This document shows, piece by piece, positions 598-49,343 of a DNA stretch of 60,021 bases. The notes beneath the pieces are model-generated. The model searched no databases. It was not told where the DNA came from and saw only the letters and a list, made by a program, of their open reading frames with translations. The DNA comes from a virus (Duplodnaviria > Caudoviricetes), in the IMG/VR virus record IMGVR_UViG_3300033829_000001, positions 1 through 60,021 of that record; one strand, given 5' to 3'. How positions within the stretch are numbered: position 1 is the stretch's first letter; each line of letters starts with the position of its first letter. A program made the translations under genes and the position numbers.

Positions 598-3012
598 CTA
601 TGCCTGAACGTTGTTCATAGGGGTGACTTGCGGGGCTACTGGGATACCTTGAACGCCGCCAGCGCCAGCGGGCGCAGCGCCGGAAGGCGCCGGGACATTC
701 GAACCCGACGGATTGAACCCCGCACCCCCGCCTGGGGGCGGCGGAGGCATTCCGAGCAACGCTTGTTCAGCCCCGGGCGGTAGGCCGCCCCGTAACTGGA
801 CCTGAACCTTGGGCGGCGGAGGCGGAGGGGGCGGCGGAGGGGGCGGCGGAGGGGGCGGCGGCCCGAAAACGTTACCGTTAGCGCCCGGAACAACCCCTGG
901 GGGCAATCCGGGAGGTGGCGCAGTCGGGTTATCTCCCGGCTGTTTGACCTTGATCTCGATACCAGTGTTGTCCGCGACCACTTGCAGTAGTCTGGCGGTC
1001 TCGTCTGGCCCAATAAGTGGTTGATAAGACGGGTTATTGACCAACTGAAGGAACTGTAACTGCTTCGTAAGGTCTTGTTCCTGCTTCGCAGCCTGCCGAA
1101 CACCGTCAACGACGATATTTTCATCGCCTCGTAACATACCAGTGCTGTCCGTAAGCATAATAAAGTCGTAAAGCATATGCAGCAGTGGATTGAAAACGTC
1201 TGTATCGATGTTATCCGCCACGTTCTGTAGCGTTTTGTTCGCATTGTTGATCAACATCGATAGCCCGGAGGCCGTACGGCCGGCTCCCGAACCAGCGCCC
1301 CCGCCAGTCAGGTACCTTGGGATAGTCGAAACGTCATCTAGCATGACCGAAAACTTGTCAACGATGCTCATCAGCTCTTGAGCATTACTTTGGGGCTGAA
1401 AAAACGTGACCGGAGTTCGGTTCCCGTTGGTCGGATCTCCTATATACTTCCATCGTTTCCAGGGGTAGAGCATGTCATCCTGGTTCGGGGAGATCAATTC
1501 CTCGTCATAGACTACCTGCGGACCCGAACTGATAGCGATGTTGTTTACCAAAGCGCGCAGAGTCGCATTAATCACTTCTGTAAGATCGTTCGCGAGAGCC
1601 GGGATGCCGTTGCCATAAAGCGTCCCCGGCTGCTTATCAAATGAAGTAACATAGTAAGGTACTCGAAGACGGGGGGACGGGTTAAGCATCACCTTAAAAA
1701 TGCGTTTATCCACCATCCAAGCCGTGATGAAATATGGCTTGTACGGATCCTCAGCTCCCGGGACGCCGTATTCAATGAGATATCTGCCCAAGACGAACCC
1801 GTGGAACTCGATAGCATTGATGTAGGTGTCGTCGAGAACGTTGTTGCGACCCTCCATCTGAGCACGCTCATAGTCAAAGATCTGGATCCACTCTTTGAAC
1901 CCGCGGCCTTCGTACGCCTGAATAATGGCCCTAATATCATCTTCGCGATACCCGGGTAATCCAATCAGATTATAGAGATCAGTCACGCTCAAACGCTGAC
2001 GCTCGAACACTTCGGTGTTCTTGATGCTAGTCGCGCCGGGAGAGAACCAAATATCCCACGGGGATACGCGTTCCCAGAAGAAACTAGCACGCTCCTCGGC
2101 ATGCAGTTTGCGCTTACGATCCCATTTCAGATGCGTGGTTTTGCGCGTCACCGGGCCTTTGAGGACCGCGTATTTATAGACCGGCAAGTCCGATAGGAAC
2201 TCCGACAGCGCATGATAAAAATCGCCCTCTTCTAGAATTTTATCAACCTTCAGTTGCGCCTCTTTTGCTTCGGTCTGTGCTTTACGCCGTTCAGCCAGCT
2301 TCACAGCCTCATATAATTCCTCGATACGGTCTTCGATCTGTTGCTGCGGTATCTTGATTTGCTGTTGGTTCGCATGCAGCACTTCTTGCACCACGATGGT
2401 GGCTATGTGCTGATCAACTTCGTCTGGCGTCATGGGATCAGCGGTCGGTTCCAGGGTCCAGGGGCGGTCGGAATTCATGTATACGTTACGCAGTAGCGCA
2501 GTTGCGCCGCGGCATTTCATTGCCATCAAGCGCGAGTAAACAGCCGACCCGCCAACAGCTTCGATGGCCTGCAGTTCTCCCGGGGAGTACTGGCCGTTGT
2601 AAGCTCGCATGTCGCGGATAAGTTCGTCGTCAACAGCGATGACCCGGCGATGTCGGACTGCTTTCTCAAACCGTTGGCGAATATAATTAGCAAGATCTGT
2701 CGCTACTTCGGATGAGATTCCGGAGAGATCCTCGGAGCGCTTCTGCGCAGCATCAAGCTCATCGTTACCGACCACGCGTAGCAAGCCGCGGCCTTGATGT
2801 TTCATCGGTTCAGTAGTTGTGCGGGCTTTCTTCTTAGAACGGTCAGCCGCAGCACCGTCAAATACGCCGGGCACGGGTGATGCTGCGCGGGCTGAGGTCC
2901 CTAGATTAGCGCCCTGCCCCGCTGGCCCAGCAAACCCTATTGCTGTAGGCTGCGGCTTCTTCGTATTCGTATCCTGAACCGAAGGCGATACAGAAGTCGG
3001 GATCGCGCCCAT
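598..3012 (-). CDS. Portal protein (head-tail connector) with Pro-rich C-terminal tail
   Basis: 804 aa; follows TerL; portal-like motifs (RVSPWDIWFSP, LYGNGIP, RTASGLSML). Confidence 0.85.
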   Translation of the reverse strand: MGAIPTSVSPSVQDTNTKKPQPTAIGFAGPAGQGANLGTSARAASPVPGVFDGAAADRSKKKARTTTEPMKHQGRGLLRVVGNDELDAAQKRSEDLSGISSEVATDLANYIRQRFEKAVRHRRVIAVDDELIRDMRAYNGQYSPGELQAIEAVGGSAVYSRLMAMKCRGATALLRNVYMNSDRPWTLEPTADPMTPDEVDQHIATIVVQEVLHANQQQIKIPQQQIEDRIEELYEAVKLAERRKAQTEAKEAQLKVDKILEEGDFYHALSEFLSDLPVYKYAVLKGPVTRKTTHLKWDRKRKLHAEERASFFWERVSPWDIWFSPGATSIKNTEVFERQRLSVTDLYNLIGLPGYREDDIRAIIQAYEGRGFKEWIQIFDYERAQMEGRNNVLDDTYINAIEFHGFVLGRYLIEYGVPGAEDPYKPYFITAWMVDKRIFKVMLNPSPRLRVPYYVTSFDKQPGTLYGNGIPALANDLTEVINATLRALVNNIAISSGPQVVYDEELISPNQDDMLYPWKRWKYIGDPTNGNRTPVTFFQPQSNAQELMSIVDKFSVMLDDVSTIPRYLTGGGAGSGAGRTASGLSMLINNANKTLQNVADNIDTDVFNPLLHMLYDFIMLTDSTGMLRGDENIVVDGVRQAAKQEQDLTKQLQFLQLVNNPSYQPLIGPDETARLLQVVADNTGIEIKVKQPGDNPTAPPPGLPPGVVPGANGNVFGPPPPPPPPPPPPPPPPPKVQVQLRGGLPPGAEQALLGMPPPPPGGGAGFNPSGSNVPAPSGAAPAGAGGVQGIPVAPQVTPMNNVQA

Positions 3013-3294: not shown

Positions 3295-4701
3295 TCAAGT
3301 CCAGGCTTTCCAATTGGGCTTGGGGGCCTTCGTGGGATTGTTTCTTACACGAGTCAACTTAGCGAGAACCGTCCCACTATGCCCTAGGGTTGCATATTGG
3401 TGCGCATCCGCAAGATCGGAGAAAGGATGGTTCTTCTCGGGTACAGGTTTAAGCGTCCCGTCTTTCATTTTGGCGTAACGGTAACGTGACTGAAATCCAC
3501 GAATTAGCTGTGTACACTGAGGACTGATAAGCATCGCTGCCCCACCGTCGCGCTGTTGAAGAAGCCACTTTTCGACAGCTCTGAGACGCGGATCTATAAG
3601 GTTGGTCTGTGCGGGCTGGGCAGAGAAACCAAGCCGCGCGAGAGCTTTGAACACAGATTCCTCACCAATTTGGCCGCGGGCGACTCCTGAAGGGTCCCCA
3701 ACAATGCCAACTGGGAGTCTGGCGTACTTAGCACCCGACAGGAGCGGTCGAAGTAACGTTATACAAAACTGCTCAACCCCCATGCCATCCGCATACAGTT
3801 CATCAAGGATCGCTAACCGTCCCCGGGGGTCCATCTGGGTCACTATCGCCGCGGGGTTGCGACCAAAATCCATACCTACAATCACCATTGTCCCTGGTAT
3901 TGGCATCAGGGTAGACTTGGCTACGTGAAATTCTGTCTTGAAGGAATTCCGGTACACAGCTTCTCCTGACAGAGAAGGCGAGATTCGGTTGTCGATGTAC
4001 TGCTCCACCCACTCGGGCGAGTTGCTTTCTATGAGATCCTCGTAGTAACCGGGAACTAGGTGCTCCCGGTTCTCCGCGCCCGGGTCCCGTGCGCCCGGTT
4101 GGACCCAATAGCCCCAAGTCTTTGGTAGCTCTTTGCCCATCAAGTCCTTTTCTTCGAGGATCTTGTTCCAGGGTGAGTCTTCGGAAAATGAATTGGTTTC
4201 CGCGATGACCCCGTACCAAGACGGCCCGCCGTTCATCATCGATGGAAACCGTCCGCACCGAGATAGCACGTCCAAGAGAATCTGCGGCGGAAGCTCCCGA
4301 AGCTCCGACAACCATCCAGCGGTTAAGTCGAGCGAAAGCAAACGCTGGACGTTCTCGGGAGTGTCGAGCGGGAGCATTATCCATTCCGACTCCACGTCGT
4401 TAATTTTGATCCAGAAGGTCTTATGTTGAGCCTCATAGGTGGCAATACCCCGAAGCAACTCGGCAATAGTCTTTGCGGAAGTAGTCTGAAGTTGCGGTAG
4501 CGTATTGCGGACAATGCAGAACCGGGTACGTCGGATGCCGTCTCTAGGATCCGGAGCTTGCTCCATGGCCCGACGCAATAGCTCCATGACCATGCCAGAC
4601 GACTTGCCCGATCCCACCGGGCCGCGGATGACTCGCACGCGTTGATCGGAACGCATGAACTTTGAGATTGTGGGAGGGGCTTCGTAGACAAGATCTGTCA
4701 T
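3295..4701 (-). CDS. terL: Terminase large subunit
   Basis: Walker A GPVGSGKS, VRNT motif, Walker B-like WLSE, nuclease motifs GMDFG, GDPSG and DLADA. Confidence 0.93.
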   Translation of the reverse strand: MTDLVYEAPPTISKFMRSDQRVRVIRGPVGSGKSSGMVMELLRRAMEQAPDPRDGIRRTRFCIVRNTLPQLQTTSAKTIAELLRGIATYEAQHKTFWIKINDVESEWIMLPLDTPENVQRLLSLDLTAGWLSELRELPPQILLDVLSRCGRFPSMMNGGPSWYGVIAETNSFSEDSPWNKILEEKDLMGKELPKTWGYWVQPGARDPGAENREHLVPGYYEDLIESNSPEWVEQYIDNRISPSLSGEAVYRNSFKTEFHVAKSTLMPIPGTMVIVGMDFGRNPAAIVTQMDPRGRLAILDELYADGMGVEQFCITLLRPLLSGAKYARLPVGIVGDPSGVARGQIGEESVFKALARLGFSAQPAQTNLIDPRLRAVEKWLLQQRDGGAAMLISPQCTQLIRGFQSRYRYAKMKDGTLKPVPEKNHPFSDLADAHQYATLGHSGTVLAKLTRVRNNPTKAPKPNWKAWT

Positions 4702-6639: not shown

Positions 6640-6901
6640 GGGTCCGCCGACCGCCGATCTTGATAGTGATCGCTACGGCGTGCCAAAAAGGGTGAGCGCA
6701 GGGCAGTTGAATACATATGCACGGCGTATACCCCAATTTTGGCCGCAGCTCGTGGACTTCTACACATTTGAATATGTCAAAGCACGGAAGACCGGTAATA
6801 GGGTCAGCACTGATACCAGCGCCGCGCAGTACGTGAAATAGCCCGAGAACTCGCTTCATAGGTTCGCCGCTCTCGAAGTGCGTTGCGGAGTAGCCTTTCA
6901 T
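6626..6901 (-). CDS. Hypothetical Cys/His-containing protein
   Basis: ATGA-coupled to the upstream RHH gene. Confidence 0.55.
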   Translation of the reverse strand: MKGYSATHFESGEPMKRVLGLFHVLRGAGISADPITGLPCFDIFKCVEVHELRPKLGYTPCICIQLPCAHPFWHAVAITIKIGGRRTHAPS

Positions 6902-7098
6902 TCTGAGGTCCCCTTGATAGTCTGCGCCTCAACCATAGCTTTCGGTCCTTCCCGCAAAATATACTCGCGACACGCAACCCGTATCAGCTCCGAATATGTC
7001 GTGTTCTTCAAAGCTGCCAACTTCTTAAGGCCGGCCAGCCAATCGGCTGCCATGTACAAATTGATCCTTTCGCGCTGTCCGACGTTAGTTCGTGTCAT
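6898..7098 (-). CDS. Ribbon-helix-helix (CopG/Arc-like) DNA-binding protein
   Basis: RINLYM...LKKLA...TYSELIRVACREYI pattern. Confidence 0.75.
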   Translation of the reverse strand: MTRTNVGQRERINLYMAADWLAGLKKLAALKNTTYSELIRVACREYILREGPKAMVEAQTIKGTSE

Positions 7099-7128
7099 AC
7101 GTATATAATACTCTTCTGCGTTTAGAAA

Positions 7129-7437
7129 TCAACCCGCTCCGAATCTTAGCCCGGCAACCAGATTTATAGCCTTTAACCAGTCATCGACCGAAGCAAACAT
7201 GTGAACGTGCGTGCGCCAGTTAGTTTTGCTGTGTTTCAAAATCCAAAAATTGATGCTGAACTGCGCAGTGCAACCCGCCATTATCAATGCGGCTCGAATG
7301 CCTTCATGCAGCTCCTCCGCTGGCCGGCCGGCGGAGGCAGGAGTGGGAGGCAGCACCTCGCTCACCGTCTGTTGAGTCTCCAAATGGCTCCAATCAATGT
7401 CGCGCGCGTTGAGCGCGATTAGCTTTTCTATACCCAC
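7129..7437 (-). CDS. Hypothetical protein
   Basis: GAGG RBS and GTG start; shares '(I/V)RA(A/T)L(I/M)xxG' with 7491-7751. Confidence 0.6.
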   Translation of the reverse strand: MGIEKLIALNARDIDWSHLETQQTVSEVLPPTPASAGRPAEELHEGIRAALIMAGCTAQFSINFWILKHSKTNWRTHVHMFASVDDWLKAINLVAGLRFGAG

Positions 7438-7490
7438 GGTTGAAAACCTCTATGTGCATTGTAGATCAGCGCCGCCTGTAACATGATCCA

Positions 7491-7751
7491 CTAAGCGTGG
7501 GGGGCGGTCGTCAGCTTAGATCGCTTCATCAGTTCGTCCGCAATCTTGGCGAGTGTGGTTTCCCATCGAGCGTACTGTGTGTGTTCCCAGACCGGACACG
7601 CATGCAGCAGCATAGCTTTGGGCCAGATATAATATACGTTGTTCGTAGAGTCCCAGACATATTCCAGCCCAAGCAGCATCAATGTGGCCCTGACATCCTC
7701 TGAGATCTCAAGCGGGCGGAGGCGTAGCGGGCTGGGCGAACATAGGGTCAT
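7491..7751 (-). CDS. Hypothetical protein
   Basis: ATGA-coupled ORF. Confidence 0.6.
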   Translation of the reverse strand: MTLCSPSPLRLRPLEISEDVRATLMLLGLEYVWDSTNNVYYIWPKAMLLHACPVWEHTQYARWETTLAKIADELMKRSKLTTAPHA

Positions 7752-8269
7752 GGGTCCTCTACCTCGATCGGCAGTGATGCGAGGTGTGTCGTCTGGGCCG
7801 GCGCATCGACCCTGTTGGCTATAAAAGCGTCTAGAAGTGCCGCGGTCTCTTTGCGACTTAAAGGCTTGATCTCGGGCATCTGCGCCAGTAACTTCGCTCT
7901 AAAGTCGGCAATGAACGTAAGTATTTCGGTCCATTTCGCTTCGTCGGCATTTCCTGGCACCGCGAAGCAGTCAGTCATCTTGGTGTGGGTATTCGTAGCC
8001 CACAACAAGAATCTGTCCGCACGAGTCTGATACTGATGCTTTACACCCATTATATCCATTTTCATGGTGGCTGATGGCGGCACGGGCGGAGCGGGCTTAG
8101 ACGGGTCTTTAGGATATGGTACTAACCCAGCATATGGGGTGAATTCCATTCGCACTAAATCCGGATCTAGAACGACCATCATCAGTTCCTTGCTGTGCGT
8201 AACTACACACTGCGTTGAGTATAATGTACGTACACGCAGTGTCAAGTACAAAATACGCCGGCCATGCAT
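7748..8269 (-). CDS. Hypothetical protein
   Basis: AGGAG RBS upstream; 173 aa. Confidence 0.6.
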   Translation of the reverse strand: MHGRRILYLTLRVRTLYSTQCVVTHSKELMMVVLDPDLVRMEFTPYAGLVPYPKDPSKPAPPVPPSATMKMDIMGVKHQYQTRADRFLLWATNTHTKMTDCFAVPGNADEAKWTEILTFIADFRAKLLAQMPEIKPLSRKETAALLDAFIANRVDAPAQTTHLASLPIEVEDP

Positions 8270-8278
8270 TAATCTCCT

Positions 8279-8578
8279 CTATTGTTGTCTCGCCGCTTTC
8301 TCCGCATCAGCTGAACTATCGCCGTCATCGGCGGACCGCAAATGGACGTAGTACACCACGAGCCCGACGAGGGGGACCACCACGAGAGAAGTCATCGTGA
8401 TAACGAACGCGTTGAGCTTGTCCATGTGCTCGAACACCATATGGATCACATACTGCGTCTGCATCGCAGCCCATATTACCAAGCCGCGGCGGATGCCTTT
8501 GTGTTCATCCATCAGCGACAATAGAAATCCGAACGGCGATTTGAAAAATCCGGCTATCCAACTAAGAAATATATGCAT
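8279..8578 (-). CDS. Small membrane protein (holin-like, about 2 TM segments)
   Basis: Hydrophobic segments followed by a charged C-terminus. Confidence 0.6.
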   Translation of the reverse strand: MHIFLSWIAGFFKSPFGFLLSLMDEHKGIRRGLVIWAAMQTQYVIHMVFEHMDKLNAFVITMTSLVVVPLVGLVVYYVHLRSADDGDSSADAEKAARQQ

Positions 8579-8581
8579 AGC

Positions 8582-8860
8582 TCACCCCACAGGAATAGTC
8601 GCAGTTGTATTCGCCGCATTGTACGCGTTGATAGTCGCAGTATTGCTAGCCAGACCGGCCTGTATCGTCGCCAACGCACTCTGCTGGGCCGCCAATGTCG
8701 CCTGCGCCGTAGCTAGCGAAGAAGCAACATCCAGCGCTTGTATGCTGGCAATATTCGCCTGCGTCGCCGCGATCTGTGTATTGAGCTGGTTAATCTCGTT
8801 GTTACATAGATCTACAATATACGAAGCCGCTTGGGCCTGTGCTAAAGTTGGGGCTGACAT
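8582..8860 (-). CDS. Ala/Gln-rich coiled-coil protein immediately downstream of the fibre gene
   Basis: 92 aa with heptad repeats and no Lys/Arg. Confidence 0.7.
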   Translation of the reverse strand: MSAPTLAQAQAASYIVDLCNNEINQLNTQIAATQANIASIQALDVASSLATAQATLAAQQSALATIQAGLASNTATINAYNAANTTATIPVG

Positions 8861-8861
8861 A

Positions 8862-10691
8862 TTACTTTCTCCGAATTATGACGTAACCAGTGAGGAAAAA
8901 AGACCACAAGGCAAGAGCCGCGATTTCGTGTTGTTGATCCTGTATAGCTTTAGTCAATACGGCCGTCATTTGCATGTATCGCACGGTATGGACTTGACCG
9001 TCTTCTTCGAGAGTGACCAGTCGCGGATCTACGGCCTGGACTTCTTCCGCAACAAAACCAACCTGTTCGCCAGCATTGGTCAAATCCACGTTGCCATCTT
9101 CGTTCATGAAGTAACTAACCGGGTTCAGCGCCATGACTTCATCCAGCCCCGACTTAAACGCCAAGGGCTTGATGTCGTGCTTGAATCGGCGGGCTGAGAC
9201 CAAGCAGGTGCTCGACGGATCGTAGGTCAACGTGGACGAAGACCAGCATACGCTACCAGTCTGCGCAGCGGTGCTGGATGTCAGTGACGCCATGGCAATT
9301 GTGGTAGCGTTAGGAACGGTAAAAGTCGTCCCGTTGAACGTATCGACAGTGGAGCTAACGCTGAACGCATCTGTGTTGTTACTAAGGCACCAAGCAATGG
9401 TGCCGGTAGCCGTTAAATGAAAGCGAGCAGCAGTGGAACCACCGCAACTAGAGGTTCCCGATATACTAAGAGATGCATTAGAAGAAATTTGCCCAGTACT
9501 AGTAAGGGTACCCCCGAAAGTTGCTCCTCCGGATCCTAAAAACGTATATGTCGGATTGTTCGTGGTGTTGCCAAACGAGAGATTGGTGATGTTCGTGGTC
9601 GTGCCACGCGTTACGGTCATGGCGTTAAGGCCGGCCCCAAGAGCGTCAGTATATGTAGCCAAGCTCCATACACCGGAGTTAACGCATGTGCCCCACCAGC
9701 CTAGATTCGTGCCGGCGCCGGACTGATCCAAATAATCGCACGGTGCGGTCGCTACGACTTCATTGTAATTAGTGGCTTCTATAACCGTCCCAGTTACAGC
9801 GGCAGGCGTGGTGCCGCCGATCGCGGGCGGAGTCGCATAGTTCTGCGTCGCGAAAGTCCCCAGTCCAGTGACCTGCGTGCTAGGGATAGAGGCATTGGCA
9901 TCGAAATATGTCAGCAGCGCAGCAGGAGTCGTCTTCACATTAGCGCCGCTCTGCGTCATCGGTATGGACTCTGATCCTGTGATAGCCGATCCAGCCGACA
10001 ATGAACTGAACAACTCGAACGACGTCGCGCACGAGCCAGCAGAAGTCGTCACGGCGCCCGTCAGCGCAGGCAACTGAGAGCAGCTGAAGTTGGTCGCGGC
10101 AATAGTTGAGTTCACGAACGCATCGGTAGCCAGCTTAGTAGTATTGTCGGCAGTGGTCTGTGTAGTGGCCGTTGTGCCATTAGGCAACGCGGGGGTCCCG
10201 CTCAGGTTAGCCGCCGTGCCAGTAGTGTTCTGGTTCCACGTCGGAACTGTCCCGCCAAGCTGCGAGTACTGCACTTGCGCGCTGTTACAAGCTCCGCTCG
10301 CGGTTATACCCGTCGCATACTGCCCGGAAGTACACTGCGTGGGCGTCGCAGCCAGAGCAGTTGCCGTCGCAGCGTTGCCAGTGGTGTTCTGGTTAAGGGT
10401 CGGAAACGTCGCGTTCGCAAGGTTGATCGTAGGGCTACCGCTAATGGCGCCTGTGGATATACCTACAGTGAACGTCTGCAGAGCCGTCCATGAGTTAGCG
10501 CCGCCGAGCAACTGCGAACTGATATAAGACAGGATCTGCGCCGCGGTTAGTTTAACCGTCGTGCCTGACTGGTCGAATGGGGCGACCTCGGTCCCGGTCG
10601 GAGTGGAGCCCGCAGGCAGCGCTGTTATCGTAGTCTGTGCGAACGCCGTCACTGGGATCGCAGCTAGAAGGCCAAGCAGTATCTTTTTCAC
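8862..10691 (-). CDS. Fibre-like protein with signal peptide, C-terminal Peptidase_S74 intramolecular chaperone and TM anchor
   Basis: N-terminus MKKILLGLLAAIPVTAFA; fibre motifs (ITALPAG..GTEVAPFDQSGTTVK and a second copy; DNTTKLATDAFV); S74 motifs SARRFKHDI, GFVAEEV, VRY...LTKAIQ; C-terminus IAALALWSFFLTGYVII-RRK. Confidence 0.85.
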   Translation of the reverse strand: MKKILLGLLAAIPVTAFAQTTITALPAGSTPTGTEVAPFDQSGTTVKLTAAQILSYISSQLLGGANSWTALQTFTVGISTGAISGSPTINLANATFPTLNQNTTGNAATATALAATPTQCTSGQYATGITASGACNSAQVQYSQLGGTVPTWNQNTTGTAANLSGTPALPNGTTATTQTTADNTTKLATDAFVNSTIAATNFSCSQLPALTGAVTTSAGSCATSFELFSSLSAGSAITGSESIPMTQSGANVKTTPAALLTYFDANASIPSTQVTGLGTFATQNYATPPAIGGTTPAAVTGTVIEATNYNEVVATAPCDYLDQSGAGTNLGWWGTCVNSGVWSLATYTDALGAGLNAMTVTRGTTTNITNLSFGNTTNNPTYTFLGSGGATFGGTLTSTGQISSNASLSISGTSSCGGSTAARFHLTATGTIAWCLSNNTDAFSVSSTVDTFNGTTFTVPNATTIAMASLTSSTAAQTGSVCWSSSTLTYDPSSTCLVSARRFKHDIKPLAFKSGLDEVMALNPVSYFMNEDGNVDLTNAGEQVGFVAEEVQAVDPRLVTLEEDGQVHTVRYMQMTAVLTKAIQDQQHEIAALALWSFFLTGYVIIRRK

Positions 10692-10951
10692 TGGATAGTC
10701 CTCAAAGGCATACCACTAAGAGTAGTGATATTGATGCCCGTCAGGGTAGTTATATCATGCGAGCCGCCACTGGACGAACTGGAAGAGCTGCTGCCGAACG
10801 GCAGGGCGGTCGGGTTCATGAGTTTACCAACGCCGGCAATAGGACCGGCGACCGACGCCGTCAGAACCGGCGGGGCTTGTCCCGCAACTACGAACTTGCC
10901 CAACCCGATAAGCACTGTCACCGGGACAGTCAGCCGCAATAAGTTACGCAT
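10688..10951 (-). CDS. Small exported protein; the C-terminal ITTLTG-x2-ITTLSG repeat resembles fibre-adaptor tails
   Basis: Hydrophobic N-terminus, Ser linker, ATGA-coupled to the fibre gene. Confidence 0.65.
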   Translation of the reverse strand: MRNLLRLTVPVTVLIGLGKFVVAGQAPPVLTASVAGPIAGVGKLMNPTALPFGSSSSSSSSGGSHDITTLTGINITTLSGMPLRTIQ

Positions 10952-10955
10952 GGTG

Positions 10956-11315
10956 CTAACTATTGGAAATCACAGCGAGTTTATCGCCCGAGTTGACCGT
11001 GAAGTACTCCGGTACACCCGCATAGAACAGCGCACTGGTAGTCGTCGCAGTCGGATTCGTAGTGCCTATCTCAATCGACGCCGTAGCATCGCATACCACC
11101 CGTATAATATATGTGGCTGAATTGAACGCATTTGACTGAGTGCTGGTACCGGTTATAGCCACCGTCTGTTTAGCCACGGCGGGGACGGCCAGCGCGGTCT
11201 GGTATGTAACGTTCTTGTTGTACTGGTACTCTGTCACCCAGCAACTGGACGCGTGCGCTCCCGCCGAGCCCGCCAAGGCCGCAGCGGCGGCTAGAATTCG
11301 CATATAATTTTTCAT
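10956..11315 (-). CDS. Secreted beta-rich protein
   Basis: Signal peptide ending AHA; 2 Cys. Confidence 0.75.
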   Translation of the reverse strand: MKNYMRILAAAAALAGSAGAHASSCWVTEYQYNKNVTYQTALAVPAVAKQTVAITGTSTQSNAFNSATYIIRVVCDATASIEIGTTNPTATTTSALFYAGVPEYFTVNSGDKLAVISNS

Positions 11316-11318
11316 GGG

Positions 11319-11822
11319 TTAGTACCCGCTGCAGCTGAATTGGACAACGTCGCTCGTAGTCGCGATCGTGATTTTCAGCGTCGCAGCCGTGGTGCTCACC
11401 GGGGCTACGGTCTCACCGACCACGCCTGAAGTAATATCCACCACGAAGCACGCCCAGCCATGCGGGGCCGCAGGCAGTGTCAGGACGGCAGTGCTGGCAC
11501 CCGCGGTGCCCGTGCACAGGAAGCTGCCCGTGCGCGCGCCGCCAGTGAGGGTGCTGGTGGTAGCGCAAGCGCCGGTACCAGAGGCCACCACGAACGTCGC
11601 ACCAGTGTCCAACGCGCTGGCTGAGATCACGCCCGCGGCACTTACCGCCAGTCCGCTACCCAGGGGGCAGTCGAAACCGTAGGCAACGCCGCTCTGCGGG
11701 TTACACAGGACGCTGGTTGCATTCATCGGACCTACTTGCTGAGGACCAACCTGCCCGTCAGCCAGTACGGCACCAGAGAATAGAGTCGCGGCTACAAGAC
11801 AAGATTTCAAAAAATTTTTCAT
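11319..11822 (-). CDS. Secreted beta-rich protein, paralog of 48676-49092 and 47593-48651
   Basis: Signal peptide ending VLA; shared GG..G.F...GT / G(W/F).C...D(I/L)T / D....(F/Y).C..(Y/F) pattern. Confidence 0.8.
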   Translation of the reverse strand: MKNFLKSCLVAATLFSGAVLADGQVGPQQVGPMNATSVLCNPQSGVAYGFDCPLGSGLAVSAAGVISASALDTGATFVVASGTGACATTSTLTGGARTGSFLCTGTAGASTAVLTLPAAPHGWACFVVDITSGVVGETVAPVSTTAATLKITIATTSDVVQFSCSGY

Positions 11823-11849
11823 GGCGGCCTCGCAAAAATTAGTTGCGTG

Positions 11850-11878
11850 ATTCTAAAACGACGGGGGGATGTTGTCTA
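11850..11878 (-). promoter_or_regulatory. Sigma70-like promoter TAGACA-N17-TAGAAT for the secreted-protein/fibre cluster
   Basis: Near-consensus hexamers with 17-nt spacer just upstream of 11822. Confidence 0.6.
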
Positions 11879-11913
11879 TAGTAGAGCAGTCTGCGGGGAT
11901 TATATATGTATGT

Positions 11914-12501
11914 TTACTTTCTTCTGGAGAAAGTTCTGATGCGGTGGCAGTTCGCGCACACGAGATCGCACTTGCGCATCTCTGTAATGATCTTCTCTAA
12001 GCTGCTATTTAACATCCTAGAGATATCCCGATGCTTAGGACCGCGCTCTGGAACATGGTCAAATTCCATGGCATCAGGATGAAATTTACTGTGGCAGTCT
12101 TTGCATGGAGTGATCGCTTTATACCCACTGATAGCAGCTTTATTTCTGGCTACCTTAGCGGCCTGTTCGGCTCTCCTAGCTGCAATCCTTTCTTCTTGAG
12201 TGTATCGCAACACTTTCCTACGAGGTGGCTCGGTCAATGCCGTAGCTAGGTCCATCCCCCGCTGAAGCCTTTTTGTAATCGACGCTTCACTTATGCCTAT
12301 TCTCTTTGCATGCTCAGCGCGAGTCCCCGTGACGCCACCAGCAGTCAGTATCTCAACTGTATGCACGGGCGTCGTTGCTGCGCGGGCTCGGTCCCACTTT
12401 GCATTGAATACCCTGTTCTGCCAGCACGTATAAGTAATACCATGCGCTGCAGCAAGAGCTTTCCAACTCTTAAAAATTTTTCCATCGTACTCGATTTTCA
12501 T
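11914..12501 (-). CDS. HNH endonuclease with N-terminal repeated DNA-binding modules
   Basis: CKDC...EFDHV...CDLVCANCHRIRT. Confidence 0.85.
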   Translation of the reverse strand: MKIEYDGKIFKSWKALAAAHGITYTCWQNRVFNAKWDRARAATTPVHTVEILTAGGVTGTRAEHAKRIGISEASITKRLQRGMDLATALTEPPRRKVLRYTQEERIAARRAEQAAKVARNKAAISGYKAITPCKDCHSKFHPDAMEFDHVPERGPKHRDISRMLNSSLEKIITEMRKCDLVCANCHRIRTFSRRK

Positions 12502-12599
12502 ATGCGCCGGCCTTCAAAATTTATTATAGGCATACTGACATAGAAAATCATGTAAGTCAAGCGTGAGACAGATGAAGCCGATCGCCGCCCCCTACCCGT

Positions 12600-13050
12600 T
12601 GTCCAGCCCGCCATGCCCGCCCGGTGATAATACACACTAGTTAACATAATCATTCAGCAATCCCTATCAATGAGAGACATTGCAGCACTGTACCAAGTCT
12701 CTTAGGGTTCACGCTAGTTCACGCACAGTCGCGGGCTGGATGAGTTTGGCGCAACGCAGCGGGCTTCGAGCCTGTCGCGGGCTACGGGGGCAAGCCCCCC
12801 GTAACGCAAACGGACAACGATGTCCGAGCAAGCGTCTAGATAACCGCGTCATATTATGCGTAGACGGTAGCACCGAAATGGGTTCGCGGTTACTCCGCGA
12901 GTTATTGTCCCAGTTAGCTAGGCCCCTATTGACATTGTCAATAAAACGTGCTGTCACAGCCCGCGCAGTTAAAATTACCTGCGAGGATAGTGTGACTACC
13001 GGACCGTCTATCAACGGCGAAACCGAATCACTACCCGATAGGGCCTAGTC
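12600..13050. other. Hairpin-dense non-coding region (candidate ncRNA or cis-acting element)
   Basis: Stems include TACGGGGG/CCCCCGTA, CGGACA/TGTCCG, TAACCGCG/CGCGGTTA and CTAGGCCC/GGGCCTAG. Confidence 0.5.
12927..12943. promoter_or_regulatory. Perfect palindrome TATTGACA-T-TGTCAATA (candidate operator)
   Basis: 8-1-8 inverted repeat with TTGACA on both strands. Confidence 0.5.
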
Positions 13051-16498: not shown

Positions 16499-17743
16499 GT
16501 GTTACATACACGAAGAAGAAACATGGATGTTTCGACCCACCAGAGAATTGCGCAGTGGAACGGAGCAAGAGCGCCAGTGAAAGTTGATAACACGAATGCC
16601 GTCTCGTTCACGCGCACGCTTCGCCTGAAGGTCAAGCGTGAGGCATACGGCTGGCTCAATGCCGCAGCGATCGAAGTCAATCAGGTTTTCAACTGGTGCA
16701 ATGAGACGAGTCTCAATGCTGCGACGCGCACCGACACGAAGCGCAAGTGGATGACCGGTTTTGACCTGTGCTACCTGTCAGCTGGAGCGACCGATCTCTT
16801 TGAGCGCATCGGTGCGGATACGATCCAATCGATTTGCACGCACTACGCTGACAAGCGCCGAGCTGCGAAGCGCCTGAAACTGCGCTGGCGCATATCCAGA
16901 GGTGTGCGGCGTAGCCTGGGATGGGTTCCGTTCAAAGCAGCGAGCCTCAAGCGCAAAGGCACGTCGCTGCGCTTCGCCGGTAAGACTTTCCGCGTATTCG
17001 AAGCATCGGCACTCGAAAGCGTGAAGTGGCAGGCTGGTTGCTTCGCGCAGGATGCGGTCGGTGACTGGTGGCTATGCCTGCCGGTGACAGACACTAGCGC
17101 GCAATCGGTCGCACCGCTTGAATCTGTTGGTATCGACCTCGGATTGAAAGATATAGCCGTCACCAGCGATGCCGAGCGCCTCGAATCTGGCCGTTGGACC
17201 CATCGACACGCTGGCAGGCTAGCGACGGCGCAGCGTCGAGGCCACAAGCGCCAAGCCAAACGCATTCACCGCAAGGCCGCGCGCTGTCGAGCAGATGCCC
17301 TGCACAAGTTTTCTCGGTCCATCGTGGCCCGCTACCAAACGATAGTCGTAGGCGATGTGAGCAGTTCCAAACTGGCGAAAACCAAGATGGCCAAGAGCGT
17401 CTTGGATTCAGGCTGGGGGATGCTCAAAGCGCAGTTGCATTACAAAGGCCAGCAGGCCGGCAGAAGCGTTCAAGTCGTTAACGAAAGAAACACAACGAAA
17501 GCTTGCAGCAGCTGCGGAGCCTTAACTGGTCCCGCAGGCCTGGACAAGCTTTTTGTAAGAGAGTGGTCCTGCAGTGAGTGTGGTGACACCCACGATCGCG
17601 ACGTCAACGCCGCCAGGAACATTCTCGCGCTCAGGTGTCGAGCGTCCGTGCGCGGGAACGAGTCTTTGCAGAAACTTCGACCGCCGCGCCGAGCATCTCG
17701 CTCGCGCAAGGCAGGGACAGGAGAAGTTTATGCAACGGCATGA
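16499..17743 (+). CDS. tnpB: TnpB RNA-guided endonuclease (IS200/IS605/IS607 superfamily) with no adjacent tnpA; true start may be 16523 or 16577
   Basis: RTLRLKV N-terminus, RuvC-I VGIDLG, zinc ribbon CSSC...CSEC, RuvC-III HDRDVNAARNI. Confidence 0.92.
   Translation: MLHTRRRNMDVSTHQRIAQWNGARAPVKVDNTNAVSFTRTLRLKVKREAYGWLNAAAIEVNQVFNWCNETSLNAATRTDTKRKWMTGFDLCYLSAGATDLFERIGADTIQSICTHYADKRRAAKRLKLRWRISRGVRRSLGWVPFKAASLKRKGTSLRFAGKTFRVFEASALESVKWQAGCFAQDAVGDWWLCLPVTDTSAQSVAPLESVGIDLGLKDIAVTSDAERLESGRWTHRHAGRLATAQRRGHKRQAKRIHRKAARCRADALHKFSRSIVARYQTIVVGDVSSSKLAKTKMAKSVLDSGWGMLKAQLHYKGQQAGRSVQVVNERNTTKACSSCGALTGPAGLDKLFVREWSCSECGDTHDRDVNAARNILALRCRASVRGNESLQKLRPPRRASRSRKAGTGEVYATA
17620..17720 (+). 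ncRNA. Candidate omegaRNA scaffold overlapping the tnpB 3' end
   Basis: Stems TTCTCGCGC/GCGCGGGAA, CGCTC/GAGCG and CGAGC/GCTCG; TnpB guide RNAs typically overlap the CDS 3' end; boundaries uncertain. Confidence 0.4.
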
Positions 17744-20734: not shown

Positions 20735-21925
20735 ATGTCACATCAAGCTACTAAGCGCAGCCCGCAGGTTTCTACTGCCATATCTGCGCTTCTCGTACAG
20801 CAGCCGTTCTTCGCATCACTGCTGCTGGATCTCATGGACGTAGTAGAAACTGATACCATCCCAGCCACGGGCGAGAATCTAAAAACGATCGCTACTAACG
20901 GCAAAACTCTCTGGATTAATCCAGTGGGGTTCGCCAAGTTCTCAGTGCCTGAGCAGATAGGCTTGCTGGCGCACGAAGTCATGCACGTGATTCTGCAGCA
21001 TGCTAAGCGTCAGCACCAATATGAACTATTAGGACTGGGACCGGATCTCAAAGAATTCAGTAAGAAGAAGTTTAACCATGCTACCGACTACATTATCAAC
21101 GCATATCTTACGAAACAGGGTTTTAAACTACCCCTTGGCTCTTTGCAGAACTCGCAAGTTGGAGCAGACGATATTGTTGACGAGGTCTACCTCAAGCTCC
21201 CTGATGATGAAGCTGTCAAGGACGACGGCCCTGACCAGCATGAGTCATCAGACCCGAACACGGAGTATCACAAGAGTTCAGTACAGGCTGCTGTCAAAAA
21301 AGCACATGAAGTAGCCAAGATGCAGGGTAAAGGAACTGCTGGGCTAGAGCGGTTAATCGATGACATTTGCGAACCACAGGTGCCATGGCATGAGCATTTA
21401 CGGAAAGCTATCACGACAACTGTCCGCGGCCGGGACGTATACACATGGTCGCGACCTAATAGGCGCAAACTGGCAATTGCCCCACATGTTTATTGGCCTG
21501 GAAAATCGGGCCTTAAAGGTCCGAACATCGCTATTGAGATCGATACTAGTGGTTCAATCGGCGAGAGCGAACTTAAAACCTTTCTCGGGGAAACAAGCGG
21601 AATTCTTGCGGACATACAGCCAGAAATGGTCTACGTCGCCTATGTTGACGATAAGCTGTGCGGAGATATCATTCAGATCGACGATGTCAACGACCTTCAA
21701 GCTCTTGGCAGAAAGGCTGCGGGCGGGGGCGGCACGGACATGACGCAAATCTTCGATATTATCGAACAGCAGCAGATTCCCGCCGAGGCTGTGATCATCT
21801 TCACGGACGGATACACCGGGTTTGGAACGCCGTCCGATATCCCGACTATATGGTGTATAACTAATGAGAACATCACGGCGCCGTGGGGAGTTACTGTTCA
21901 CGTCAAGATTCCAACGGGGAGCTGA
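20735..21925 (+). CDS. Metallopeptidase-vWA protein (DUF2201-like)
   Basis: AHEVMH zincin motif; MIDAS DTSGS, GGGGTD and FTDG. Confidence 0.88.
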   Translation: MSHQATKRSPQVSTAISALLVQQPFFASLLLDLMDVVETDTIPATGENLKTIATNGKTLWINPVGFAKFSVPEQIGLLAHEVMHVILQHAKRQHQYELLGLGPDLKEFSKKKFNHATDYIINAYLTKQGFKLPLGSLQNSQVGADDIVDEVYLKLPDDEAVKDDGPDQHESSDPNTEYHKSSVQAAVKKAHEVAKMQGKGTAGLERLIDDICEPQVPWHEHLRKAITTTVRGRDVYTWSRPNRRKLAIAPHVYWPGKSGLKGPNIAIEIDTSGSIGESELKTFLGETSGILADIQPEMVYVAYVDDKLCGDIIQIDDVNDLQALGRKAAGGGGTDMTQIFDIIEQQQIPAEAVIIFTDGYTGFGTPSDIPTIWCITNENITAPWGVTVHVKIPTGS

Positions 21926-33719: not shown

Positions 33720-36133
33720 GTTTTTTCGAAAGAGTGCTTCCTACCGAAGGTAATTATTGTTTGATAAGCGGGGTCACTCGACCAGACGGAAAGCTCAGTG
33801 AAGTCCGACATTGGAATGGGTTCAAATCTACTGCCGATTTAGATAGAAAAGTACGACAACTTTCCCAGCAACCTTTGAACATCTTTTACGCCGTTGGATC
33901 ATACAACAGTGCTAACCGACAAGACCCAAGAGCAAAGCGATGTTTGTGGTTAGACTTAGACAGCAAAGATTTTGGAAGTATAGAAGAGTCGCTTAGGCAG
34001 CTTAGCGTTTTTATAAGATCTGTTGGGCTACCTGCGCCTAGTATGTATGTAGGAAGCGGGCATGGATTACATGTTTATTGGTGCCTAGACCGTGACGTGA
34101 CGTTAATCGAATGGCAGCCAGTGGCGGACGCGCTTAAAGCAAAATGTATCGAACTGAACTTTCCAGCTGATAAATCAGCCACTGCTGATCCCGCTAGAAT
34201 CCTTCGAGTCCCTGGAACTTTGAATAGGAAATATCCCCAACCAGCGCCGGTACGCTTACTAGCAGATAATGGATCATCGATTCAGCTCAATCAGCTTGCG
34301 AGCCAATTAGCAGTCATAACCGCCGGTGCTTCTTCAAAGCTTGCAGCCTTAGTAAAAAATGACGATCTAGTCACCAAGAAGGAATACCGTGAATACACTG
34401 CTGAGCAAGTCATTGCAATGCTCGAATGCATTGCCATCCCTGAGAACAACGGGCGTGAGGATTGGATCACTGTCCTATGCGCAGTGCAGGATTGGTCTCA
34501 TAAGTCCCTCGCCGCCTTCGAAATATTCCACGACTGGAGTGCGTCTCAACCGAAGTACATTAGCCGCGAAGATTGCTGGCGCACATGGTCGAGCTTTGAA
34601 CCGGGCGGGGGAATCAGCATCGGAACTTTGGTTAAATTGGCTAAGGACGCTGGATGGACCGAAAACAGCTCAGTGACGGCTGTACCGGACGCCATCAGCT
34701 TTTCTGAACAAATTGCCGCGGGAGTATCCAACAACGTCCCTATACCTGCGCCAACCGCACAGGTTATGCAACAAATCATAACATCGCCCCTTATGATCGC
34801 AGCGGCCCACGCAGTACGCGCAACGAATAGAGTTCGCTTCGATCCGAACGACGCAGTACAGTGGCTGAGCAACGAGATGGTAATGATCACAGACCAAGAC
34901 GGGCTATATTATTCAATGACCAACCGGCTACCTATGTCACGTACAGTGATTGACGATCTGCTTACGCGCTACATGCCGTTCAATGCGAGCGGCGTACCGA
35001 TCAACGCTAGCGCGCTACTGCGCCGCTATGGCACCGTCAACTCGGTAAACACGATTGGCTTCTATCCCGGAGCCGGCCCTATATATACCGAAGAAGGACG
35101 TACATACGTCAATCATTATATGAACCCGCCTGACATGCTGCCCGGTACGGCGAACGAAATTGCTTTGATCGAAAGCTTCTGGGACTACTGCTTTCCTCGC
35201 GAGGAGGATAAGGAATTCGGCGAGTACCTGAAACAATTCTACGGCCATGTCGTCCAGCATCCATCAGTAAAGATCGCTAGCGCGCCGCTCATGGTTTCCA
35301 AAGAGTTCGGGACCGGTAAGACCACGATGATGTTCGATATACCGCGTGCTATTGTAGGCACCCATAGTACAAAGCTCGTGTCTAACAAAGTCCTACGTTC
35401 AGCGTTCAGCGATTATTTGGCTGGCGCGCACTTCCTTCACTTCGATGAAGTGCATATAAACGGCAAATGGGACTCGGATGATACAGCCAACTCGATGAAG
35501 AACCTGATCACAGGCAAGACTGTCGAGATCCATCCCAAGGGTATGAAGCCTTATAATATTCCCAACCGCGTGTTCATCACTGCAACGAGTAATTATGAAG
35601 ATGCGATCACATTACCTACCGATGATGAAAGACGCTGGGGAGTTTATTACTTGCGACCTACCCTTATGTTGTCTACAAGTGCGAAAGAGTCATTCTTTGG
35701 CGTACTCCATAAATTTATCAACTCGCCGCGGGGTGCTTCGGTTCTACGGTGGTACTTTAGCAAAGTCGATCTCGCCGGTTTCGACCCACAGCGCGCTCCG
35801 CCAACTACGTCCGCTAAACGAGATATGATTGGCAAGTCACAATCATTGGACGTTCAAGTGATTCGAGACGCCCTGCAAGAAAGGTGTGGTCCGTTTGCGA
35901 AGGACGTGGGTACTCTTGATGCAGTTAAGATGTTCCTACATGCCGAAACTGGACGCGAATATCCTTCGGTTGCAACGCGCTATCTAATCCAGAAAGCAGT
36001 TCCGGGAGCAATAGCATTCGGTCAACAGCGCACTGCCGGTAGCACGCGGGTATCTATGTGGGCGTGGCGCAATCTTGATAAATGGTCGCAAGCTACTCCA
36101 CATGAAATAGCTAATGAAATCAAAAATCAGTAG
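33716..36133 (+). CDS. Primase-helicase (RepB-like AEP primase, PriCT-2, SF3/DUF5906-like ATPase)
   Basis: WLDLD, SGHGLHVYW, ILRVPGTLN; REDWITV..WS..KY..W.SF; GTGKTT, FDEV; GGAGG RBS. Confidence 0.9.
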   Translation: MSFFERVLPTEGNYCLISGVTRPDGKLSEVRHWNGFKSTADLDRKVRQLSQQPLNIFYAVGSYNSANRQDPRAKRCLWLDLDSKDFGSIEESLRQLSVFIRSVGLPAPSMYVGSGHGLHVYWCLDRDVTLIEWQPVADALKAKCIELNFPADKSATADPARILRVPGTLNRKYPQPAPVRLLADNGSSIQLNQLASQLAVITAGASSKLAALVKNDDLVTKKEYREYTAEQVIAMLECIAIPENNGREDWITVLCAVQDWSHKSLAAFEIFHDWSASQPKYISREDCWRTWSSFEPGGGISIGTLVKLAKDAGWTENSSVTAVPDAISFSEQIAAGVSNNVPIPAPTAQVMQQIITSPLMIAAAHAVRATNRVRFDPNDAVQWLSNEMVMITDQDGLYYSMTNRLPMSRTVIDDLLTRYMPFNASGVPINASALLRRYGTVNSVNTIGFYPGAGPIYTEEGRTYVNHYMNPPDMLPGTANEIALIESFWDYCFPREEDKEFGEYLKQFYGHVVQHPSVKIASAPLMVSKEFGTGKTTMMFDIPRAIVGTHSTKLVSNKVLRSAFSDYLAGAHFLHFDEVHINGKWDSDDTANSMKNLITGKTVEIHPKGMKPYNIPNRVFITATSNYEDAITLPTDDERRWGVYYLRPTLMLSTSAKESFFGVLHKFINSPRGASVLRWYFSKVDLAGFDPQRAPPTTSAKRDMIGKSQSLDVQVIRDALQERCGPFAKDVGTLDAVKMFLHAETGREYPSVATRYLIQKAVPGAIAFGQQRTAGSTRVSMWAWRNLDKWSQATPHEIANEIKNQ

Positions 36134-48651: not shown

Positions 48652-48954
48652 ATTCAGTACCTTATAGGTTAGAGATCAAAACGCAACGCATTCGTATACC
48701 AGAAGATCGCCAGACACAATCGTTCCAGCAAACGTGACAGTAGTAGTCGTGTATGCCACTTCCTTCGAACTGTCGGCTGTAGTCGTAATATCAACTAAAG
48801 AACATGCAAAACCGGTAAGGACCGGCTGCGGATAAGTGAACGTAAAGGCACCAGTGGTCGTGCCTGTAGCAACGAACGCACCAGCAACGGCGCCTCCAAC
48901 CTGAGCGGAGATAGTCTGACCAGCGGCGGTAATGACCGGCTTATTCAGACTCAG
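48437..48954. repeat. 65-bp exact direct repeat (48437-48501 and 48890-48954) shared by the tandem paralogs
   Basis: Encodes LSLNKPVITAAGQTISAQVGGA in both genes. Confidence 0.9.
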
Positions 48955-49092
48955 ATCGACAAACTGCCCTGGTAGGCCATTGATGCCCGTGAGCGGGTTG
49001 AAGCCGATGTAGGGAATATACACAGCAGCAAGCGCGGCGCCAGTTACGAACAGGGCTGCGAGGGCTGCGCCAAACTTGCGAGAAGTCTTCAT
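48676..49092 (-). CDS. Secreted beta-rich protein; paralog of 47593-48651 lacking the insert
   Basis: Signal peptide ending ALA; collinear N- and C-terminal similarity; 2 Cys. Confidence 0.85.
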   Translation of the reverse strand: MKTSRKFGAALAALFVTGAALAAVYIPYIGFNPLTGINGLPGQFVDLSLNKPVITAAGQTISAQVGGAVAGAFVATGTTTGAFTFTYPQPVLTGFACSLVDITTTADSSKEVAYTTTTVTFAGTIVSGDLLVYECVAF

Positions 49093-49164: not shown

Positions 49165-49343
49165 CCTCGCCCCCGTGGACGCATAAAGTTAGGCCGGAGC
49201 TGCGGAGCCGCAAAGTGTCGCCCGCGATCTGCATTCACAAATTCCCGGGCTACTGTGGGAGATGGCCCTTTGCCGCTGCGAGGCTTGCCCCCGTGAGCAA
49301 TCAATTCCATAAACCTGTGCTGCTTTCCTGATTTACTTGGCAT
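49161..49343 (-). CDS. Small basic hypothetical protein
   Basis: MPSKSGKQHRFM...VAREFVNAD. Confidence 0.7.
   Translation of the reverse strand: MPSKSGKQHRFMELIAHGGKPRSGKGPSPTVAREFVNADRGRHFAAPQLRPNFMRPRGRG

Follow-up and report, generated by a model that had tools for sequence, protein, structure and literature searches.

Peptidase_S74 chaperones are, to our knowledge, textbook parts of cytoplasmic phage fibres, and the sole membrane-linked use of which we are aware is in eukaryotic MYRF. K1F endosialidase, S16 gp37 (6f45), and the L-shaped fibre of T5 carry an S74 domain at the C-terminus, with a Ser/Lys dyad spaced i, i+5 and a terminal helix. According to the available text of the MYRF study (PMC3742443), self-cleavage of that protein depends on trimerisation and gives the fragments 1-577 and S578-end: the N-terminal trimer is freed, and the ICA domain and the anchor stay in the membrane. 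Here, we describe a fibre gene in the IMG/VR record IMGVR_UViG_3300033829_000001, a tailed-phage record of 60,021 bases that is rated complete (hereafter, the window). The gene (P0001; 8862..10691 including the stop, on the minus strand, as are all its parts given below) was taken from the listing of open reading frames (ORFs) and its translation, and encodes a protein of 609 amino acids (aa). This protein has the same C-terminal arrangement as the three phage proteins above. Compared with canonical S74 tailspikes and fibres, it adds a predicted leader, five cysteine pairs, a loop before the cut, and a predicted anchor with a basic tail. We hold it probable, with moderate confidence, that the product is a type I inner-membrane pro-fibre which trimerises and forms disulfides in the periplasm, cleaves itself at Val498|Ser499, and releases a trimer of the 480-aa fibre, leaving a 111-aa stub behind. 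Full-text searches of the literature, with supplements outside their scope, retrieved no account of S74 fibres with a leader or an anchor.

The two ends of the protein are the only parts where the mean Kyte-Doolittle hydropathy exceeds 1.4 in 19-residue windows (residues 3-26 and 588-608). The first peak corresponds to a predicted signal peptide of the Sec/signal peptidase I type (residues 1-18, 10638..10691), which was read from the translation and has its hydrophobicity peak at residues 4-22. It starts with MKK, continues with an 11-residue apolar core (ILLGLLAAIPV), and ends in TAFA|Q, with small residues at -3 and -1, a predicted cut at AFA|Q19, and a positive call by our heuristic. The second peak covers a predicted transmembrane anchor of 17 uncharged residues (590-606, 8874..8924), identified by hydropathy and family comparison. 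The apolar tail reads IAALALWSFFLTGYVII and is followed by RRK (residues 607-609, 8865..8873) and the stop codon; RRK is predicted to be a cytoplasmic basic tail, in line with the tail charges of anchor-bearing relatives. An uncharged segment with positive charges on its C-terminal side fits a type I topology (N-out, C-in) and the positive-inside pattern. An initial annotation of this stretch had proposed both the signal peptide and the C-terminal membrane segment with RRK, and under these heuristics both proposals stand.

Between the two ends, the predicted released fibre spans residues 19-498 (480 aa, 9198..10637), as judged by its cysteine positions, PHROG match, and matches to fibre repeats. 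It begins with a conserved mature N-terminal domain (about residues 19-62, 10506..10637), recognised by its similarity to the fibres P0005, L056, and L032. The fibre repeats of the initial annotation were recovered as two NQNTTG repeats, and the body matches the PHROG tail fibre family phrog_1980 (E 2.2e-11), with residues 84-200 matching many IMG/VR fibres. The ten cysteines of the fibre fall in five pairs spaced by 14-19 residues (120/135, 204/221, 318/336, 416/435, and 482/496), and two virion proteins of this phage, with 2400 and 863 aa, have no cysteine. The last pair delimits a loop directly before the cleavage site (9204..9248): Cys482 and Cys496 flank 13 residues and are invariant in 18 of the 18 aligned relatives.

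The S74 core follows at residues 499-559 (9015..9197) and is supported by Pfam, by a genome search, by similarity to PDB 6f45_A, and by an invariant dyad. The profile scan that the initial annotation had suggested gave a clear match to PF13884 over residues 499-559 (E 1.4e-12, 48.1 bits for a cutoff of 22), and the genome search placed S74 at 9015-9197 with 52.9 bits. In the PDB sequence search, the S16 long tail fibre (6f45_A) matched residues 498-592 with an E of 8.8e-7, and VSARRFKHDIK of our fibre aligns to SSDRRIKKDIK of 6f45. Ser499 (codon 9195-9197) and Lys504 (codon 9180-9182) form the dyad spaced i, i+5, and both are invariant in the 18 aligned relatives. The serine codon singled out by the initial annotation is thus the one that we find, with its dyad conserved, but the cut had been drawn after this residue. 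Since the fragments of MYRF are 1-577 and S578-end, cleavage is expected before the serine, at Val498|Ser499.

We modelled residues 480-609 with AlphaFold2 (predicted local distance difference test score, pLDDT, of 79.4). The model has the S74 core followed by a single unbroken helix from residue 572 to residue 608, across which the pLDDT per block is 85-93. Residues 572-589 (8925..8978) make up the amphipathic part of this terminal S74 helix, and in the model the apolar tail is its direct continuation. With the monomer model, the best Foldseek match was the ICA domain of MyRF (7dc3, E 0.02), followed by the phage chaperones 3gud (E 0.68) and 3gw6 (E 2.2). Since these matches lie above E 0.001, we take the assignment to the S74 family from the sequence matches.

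The start of the gene deserves attention, since the public gene call (P0002) begins at an internal methionine, Met245, and gives a product of 365 aa. If this were the real product, it would be a leaderless, C-tail-anchored, cytoplasmic protein. Met245 has only AGGA for a ribosome-binding motif, 15 nt upstream. In contrast, the frame is open from 10691, where a GTG start is preceded by GAGGA at a distance of 7 nt and overlaps, as GTGA, with the stop of an upstream 87-aa ORF, and residues 19-244 are homologous to other fibres. Because of the better-placed GAGGA and of the conserved fibre sequence in residues 19-244, we prefer the 609-aa form, which is the better reading of the sequence. A protein starting at Met245 would also have its RRK tail facing the periplasm, contrary to the positive-inside rule, and we regard it as extremely unlikely. 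The case shows that gene callers can shorten such genes: a call of 365 aa in place of 609 hides the leader and 244 fibre residues. Surveys built on such calls will undercount leader-bearing fibres.

To place the protein among its relatives, we searched its last 130 residues against 1.84 billion cluster representatives and obtained 14,667 matches at E ≤0.001. The 149 nearest clusters at 50% identity among these 14,667 were scored (P0122-P0268, P0005, and P0010; the fibre's own P0001 and P0002 were left out). For a leader we required a basic start, a core that is apolar and free of charges, and a small residue at both -3 and -1. An anchor was called when the last 45 residues contained an uncharged window of 17 residues with a mean hydropathy of at least 1.6, followed by Lys or Arg. 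The counts given here depend on the choice of ORFs and starts, and the samples are the nearest relatives of the fibre. Leaders were found in 120 of the 149 clusters and an anchor with a basic tail in 27. The initial annotation had called for a survey of leader and anchor co-occurrence, and in this one 23 of the 27 anchor-bearing clusters also have a leader. The other four comprise two fragments (203 and 162 aa), one protein with a signal-anchor-like start, and one unexplained case. The general statement of the initial annotation that S74 fibres normally lack a leader fails in this nearest subfamily, where leaders are the rule.

When the window's protein is included, there are 28 anchor-bearing proteins. 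Their uncharged runs have 17-23 residues (median of 18), and their tails have a median of 5.5 residues with a net charge of at least +3 in 27 of the 28. The sequences of the anchors are not conserved across these proteins; their length and the basic tail are. All 10 anchor-bearing proteins tested pass the Pfam S74 model. A guess that some anchor-bearing relatives carry a beta-helix enzyme was dropped, as no second Pfam domain was found in these 10. Most relatives end where the apolar tail of the fibre begins.

A second sample came from a scan of IMG/VR with the alignment of relatives, in which 80 loci gave 76 distinct ORFs matching the S74 region. We recorded in each ORF the Cys loop, defined as Cys-x(8-18)-Cys just before the cleavage serine. 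Among the ORFs with a leader, 18 have the loop and 3 lack it; among those without a leader, 3 have the loop and 52 lack it (Fisher p 1.2e-11). Two of the three leaderless ORFs with a loop are cut at their 5' end and the third has an unsure start. Of the 24 ORFs with a leader or a loop, 4 end in an anchor tail, against none of the 52 canonical ones (p 0.008), so that leader, Cys loop, and anchor are all missing in the canonical S74 ORFs of this sample (0/52). By its sequence traits, this association sets apart, within the S74 fibres, a subfamily that has a leader and a Cys loop and is carried on phage-sized contigs, and in which the anchor is an optional extra. The five cysteine pairs and the leader-linked loop are an independent sign, at the level of sequence, of an extracytoplasmic, oxidising compartment.

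One viral contig of 29 kb (L008) has a row of leader-bearing fibre-like ORFs (814-2925, 6666-8480, 8722-10389, and 10386-10940) after lysis-like genes, and the row includes a 604-aa protein with leader, S74, and anchor. A genome scan with a single peptide pattern gave a different picture: it found 39 loci, mostly giant proteins of Patescibacteria with an internal S74. By our heuristic, an anchor tail is missing from all 39, in a scan that did not sample the anchor class. A search of 401 genomes from the class of one of these loci gave 4 matches at E ≤1e-8. The proteins of Patescibacteria (L083-L110) reach 3857 aa and have long low-complexity tails rich in Pro, Thr, Ser, and Glu after their internal S74, an architecture that differs from phage fibres and from the anchor type alike.

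Comparisons of the N-terminal regions bear on the origin of the leader. In the leaderless 723-aa fibre of L032, residue 2 aligns to residue 18 of the window's protein, the residue before the predicted leader cut, with 39% identity over 46 residues. The 1132-aa fibre of L056 bears a leader and has both leader and N-terminal domain in common with ours, the domain being 44% identical. P0005 is 57% identical over residues 19-88, has the S74 end in common, and carries a different anchor of its own. P0302 combines the leader and N-terminal domain of P0005 with a different C-terminal part that has neither S74 nor anchor. A search with residues 1-95 of the fibre retrieved 2 proteins only. Since leaderless homologues of the fibre, and of a 119-aa protein encoded next to it (see below), start at the predicted cut site, the leader reads from these alignments as an addition to a fibre of otherwise ordinary make-up. 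Fibres that attach to a fixed partner typically keep their N-terminus constant and exchange their distal parts.

These data also bear on a simpler explanation, namely that the gene encodes an ordinary cytoplasmic tail fibre that is never exported, whose N-terminus is buried in the virion or acts as a folding element and whose C-terminus is the end of a coiled coil. Every characterised S74 fibre that we know of is cytoplasmic, the PHROG and PDB matches are to tail fibres, and in the model the S74 helix runs on into the tail. Such a fibre would leave unaccounted for a leader with the canonical n-h-c layout and AXA, homologues without a leader that begin exactly at its cut site, and five cysteine pairs with a loop tied to the leader. 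Neither would it explain a tail seen in none of the 52 canonical ORFs, whose counterparts keep length and a charge of +3 and not sequence, in a family where most members end where this tail begins. We therefore find this explanation very unlikely.

We propose the following sequence of events for the membrane-anchored, self-releasing fibre. The pro-fibre would be exported by Sec and lose residues 1-18 to signal peptidase. Its last 20 residues would then tether the chain to the inner membrane, with the anchor at residues 590-606 and RRK in the cytoplasm. Three tethered chains would meet in the plane of the membrane, where the S74 domains and terminal helices, sitting on the membrane, would nucleate the folding of the trimer from its C-terminus, and the five cysteine pairs would be oxidised in the periplasm. 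Once the trimer has folded, the Ser499/Lys504 dyad would cut the Val498-Ser499 bond, which would free a soluble fibre of 3 x 480 aa into the periplasm, while the chaperone would stay behind in the membrane as a trimeric stub of 111 aa. ATP-dependent chaperones are not known from the periplasm. If three C-termini are confined to the plane of a membrane, their local concentration would rise and their register would be fixed, and the S74 cut would act as a folding check before release, as is argued for MYRF in the available text of PMC3742443.

In this scheme the anchor is discarded along with the chaperone, and cleavage is known here as a sequence-based prediction. Both points favour a variant in which the fibre is exported and anchored in the same way and stays uncleaved in the periplasm, S74 serving only as a trimerisation module. 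Against this variant, Ser499 and Lys504 are intact and invariant in all 18 relatives, the arginine at +3 after the serine is also present, and the same dyad cleaves membrane-tethered MYRF in the available text of PMC3742443. We give the uncleaved fibre very little credence, slightly less even than the cytoplasmic one.

Returning to the self-releasing pro-fibre, all the sequence-level predictions of the type I precursor put forward in the initial annotation hold, and the comparative data add support to it. Several points nonetheless weigh against it. The leader and anchor calls on the fibre come from our own heuristics and not from trained predictors, and an anchor of 17 residues is at the short end of the range. 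The anchor is optional, as 97 of the 120 leader-bearing relatives lack it. The Foldseek similarity to solved ICA domains is weak, with none at E 0.001. More generally, the support consists of sequence features, their conservation and association, and predicted models; it is from these features and their association that we infer export, insertion, trimerisation, disulfides, cleavage, and role.

The scheme supposes a host with a periplasm, and the lysis genes of the phage are informative in this respect. A GH108 endolysin with a PG_binding_3 hint is encoded at 49833-50351 (minus strand). The adjoining ORF 49333-49839 (minus strand) has an N-terminal membrane segment and is i-spanin-like, and a second ORF is embedded in it in another frame, encoding a lipobox (LLAMSG|C) and a body rich in proline. 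These two ORFs read as a spanin pair of the Rz/Rz1 type, which would imply that the host has two membranes and a periplasm. No holin adjoins the lysis genes at 49333-50351. Two genes after the fibre and far from these lysis genes, ORF 8279-8578 (minus strand) encodes 99 aa with several apolar stretches and a tail of acidic residues; on inspection by eye it resembles a holin, and it has a homologue in the related locus L123 (E 2e-29).

The fibre is flanked by small genes on the same strand. Upstream, a 119-aa protein (10956..11315) is predicted to be an exported beta-sandwich and is a likely partner of the fibre, in view of its family, its counterpart next to the fibre of L155, and its AlphaFold2 model. 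Its family has 30 proteins, 29 of which were aligned; some have a leader and others have their Met exactly at the predicted cut. The model (pLDDT 87.7) is a beta-sandwich and has 12 matches in BFVD at E ≤0.001, all to uncharacterised phage proteins of about 100 aa. Foldseek found none in the PDB at E ≤0.001, and the best Z of a wide VIA-align search was 5.5, below the noise level of that tool. A complex prediction with three copies of fibre residues 19-95 and residues 24-119 of the 119-aa protein (score 0.00, mark 0.32) was uninformative on binding. Between this gene and the fibre lies the 87-aa ORF (10688..10951), with an apolar N-terminus and a stop that overlaps the fibre start; a homologous ORF is at the same position in L155. 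Directly after the fibre comes a 92-aa coiled-coil-like protein without a leader (8582..8860), with no Pfam or PHROG family match. Its homologue in L156 is also directly after an ORF with S74 and anchor (E 1.3e-8).

Similar gene arrangements in other loci suggest that these genes form a module. L155 is a contig of 48.9 kb from a second, unrelated phage: its portal and protease fall into PHROG families other than those of the window. Directly before its terminase, it has the same gene order: a leader-bearing small protein 46% identical to the 119-aa protein (E 7e-21), a homologue of the 87-aa ORF (E 1e-7), and P0005, which is a leader-fibre-S74-anchor gene. A profile of the small protein matched five ORFs in 190 viral loci, in L155, L012, L030, L082, and L179. 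Both the small protein and the fibre have a leader in the window and in L155, and neither has one in L012, L030, L082, and L179. This matched leader status suggests that the two proteins change compartment together. The exported 119-aa protein, and probably the 87-aa ORF, would thus be in the same module as the fibre, as far as can be told from sequence comparisons. NCBIfam and PADLOC returned nothing for the module, the latter being applied to its four genes and to five other neighbouring or leader-bearing ORFs.

What might the released fibre do? Given the mechanism above, the fibre and the small protein could be added to the outside of the virion, which they would encounter only at lysis, when the compartments merge; we see this as a serious possibility, though one that falls short of even chances. 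Fibres and small proteins of this sort belong to classes able to bind a finished particle from outside. In L166, a leader-S74-anchor gene lies between capsid genes and the tail gene phrog_376. Moreover, the N-terminal domain is common to leaderless fibres, P0302 joins it to a different C-terminal part, and leaderless homologues of the small protein lie just after the major head gene of L012. Some observations speak against such a virion role. Tailed-phage particles assemble in the cytoplasm, and we know of no precedent for exported virion fibres. Ordinary fibre-like genes are already present in the tail module of the window (52870-53886 and 54271-55104). Finally, a homologue of the fibre is found in none of 30 close-relative loci (large terminases 41-89% identical), of which about 7-8 reach far enough upstream.

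With the same export, anchoring, and cleavage, the fibre might instead act in the envelope of the infected cell and never join the virion. From inside, it might attach to the receptor or to precursors of the receptor, or mask them, leading to superinfection exclusion and sparing the progeny from debris, or it might remodel the envelope. Export and a gene next to fibre genes are common among exclusion proteins of phages, such as Llp of T5, Cor, and Lom of lambda, and this fits the present arrangement. The accessory nature of the gene (0/30 loci, with about 7-8 informative) and the ordinary fibre genes of the tail module point the same way. So does its position upstream of the terminase, in a hot spot for small genes with leaders, where the SP167/SP138 family occurs in 3 and 7 related loci, and so does the presence in this phage of at least five proteins with a leader, one of them Ice_binding-like. 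On the other side, PADLOC gave 0 matches for the 9 window proteins submitted, the N-terminal domain is common to leaderless virion-type fibres and undergoes modular C-terminal exchange, and the gene of L166 is inside a core structural operon. Furthermore, we found no integrase among the window ORFs scanned, and the phage encodes its own DNA polymerase, helicase, and primase. This makes long-term lysogenic conversion unlikely. Given the mechanism, an envelope-directed role seems to us somewhat less probable than the virion role; taken as a complete explanation, it is doubtful. We are just as doubtful about the full virion scenario, in which phages would route a receptor-binding fibre and a small beta-sandwich partner through the periplasm, Sec-exported, disulfide-bonded, S74-checked, and self-released, to join the particle at lysis. 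If true, it would represent a step of tailed-phage assembly outside the cytoplasm.

The remainder of the genome is that of a tailed phage, with an SU10-type portal (598-3012), a large terminase (3295-4701), a major head protein gene (57256-58344), and the tail-module fibre-like genes of ordinary type mentioned above. Among cultured phages, Rhizobium phage RHph_TM3_14A is the closest, its portal being 43% identical. At the matching place (L002 9385-11879), it has an ORF of 122 aa without a leader and, after it, a protein of 704 aa in which we read neither leader nor anchor. BLASTP gives no link between its 122-aa ORF and the 119-aa protein of the window, and in this comparison the two small neighbouring proteins of the fibre have no BLASTP match. 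A BFVD entry of 122 aa is among the structural matches of the 119-aa model; its identity with the ORF of RHph_TM3_14A is not established. A blastn search of 8000-12600 against cultured phages gave no match. With tblastn, the fibre protein matched 13 records of cultured phages, each at less than 60% identity and over the C-terminal 16-26% of the query only. The one record examined, Roseobacter phage CRP-212, has a canonical leaderless fibre without anchor or Cys features.

The at least five leader-bearing proteins of the phage include three others, all on the minus strand: 47593-48651 (352 aa), 48676-49092 (138 aa), and 11319-11822 (167 aa). They have a common C-terminal segment with two Cys and Phe or Tyr as the last residue, and the 352- and 138-aa proteins also have in common a segment directly after the leader. 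The 352-aa protein is the Ice_binding-like one (PF11999, E 5e-47). Related phage loci contain homologues with a leader, most of them upstream of the terminase (138-aa type in 7 loci, 167-aa type in 3), and the same type of C-terminal segment is found in P0019, a leader-bearing fibre without S74. Elsewhere, the early region encodes a TnpB / IS605 OrfB-like protein (OrfB_IS605 and a Cas12f1-like TNB domain; 16499-17743, plus strand), and HNH endonucleases are found at 11914-12501 and 20735-21925. The 2400-aa ORF (36120-43322, minus strand), with zero cysteines, has PHROG matches of unknown function only, and the 863-aa ORF after it has no family match. Scans of the window for promoters and terminators gave counts at chance level.

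The phage-borne S74 subfamily described here is large, present in many uncultured phages, and uncharacterised, with at least 120 clusters at 50% identity that have a leader and 27 that have an anchor. It prompts one to ask which function fibre-like proteins have in the periplasm during infection, and gives a concrete test of whether any component of tailed phages is matured outside the cytoplasm. The domain might also find use as a self-releasing trimerisation tag for periplasmic expression.

Several known systems resemble parts of this architecture. Proteins sorted by LPXTG/sortase or PEP-CTERM/exosortase also have a leader, a C-terminal helix, and a basic cluster, and their precursors are held until cut. 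The anchor-bearing S74 proteins have no signature motif of such sorting signals, and NCBIfam models match none of the six searched at E ≤0.01. The cut is also predicted to be made by their own S74 domain, about 90 residues upstream of the anchor, and not by a separate enzyme. Trimeric autotransporter adhesins and g3p of filamentous phages are likewise exported fibrous proteins whose chains are held by a C-terminal membrane element, which in the adhesins also registers the chains. However, the adhesins, which use a barrel in the outer membrane, are not set free, g3p comes from a phage whose assembly takes place at the membrane, and neither has S74.

The closest parallel is with MYRF/MrfA, where an ICA domain is also followed by a membrane anchor. 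The initial annotation had spoken of a MYRF-like release logic. As an analogy of logic this stands, but the topology differs, since MYRF, in the available text of PMC3742443, is a type II protein without a leader, with cargo and ICA in the cytoplasm and a lumenal domain after the anchor. In the same text, the MYRF anchor is far downstream of the ICA domain, as a construct truncated at L756 ends before it. In contrast, the window's protein is predicted to be type I, with the ICA domain on the far side of the membrane, an anchor that continues the ICA helix, and three cytoplasmic residues. The cargo is a fibre and not a DNA-binding domain, and Pfam finds S74 only. On sequence grounds the protein is a member of Peptidase_S74 that would work like MYRF, and not a member of the MYRF family. 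If this is true, phages have independently invented a logic of tethering, folding, self-cleavage, and release, on the opposite face of the membrane.

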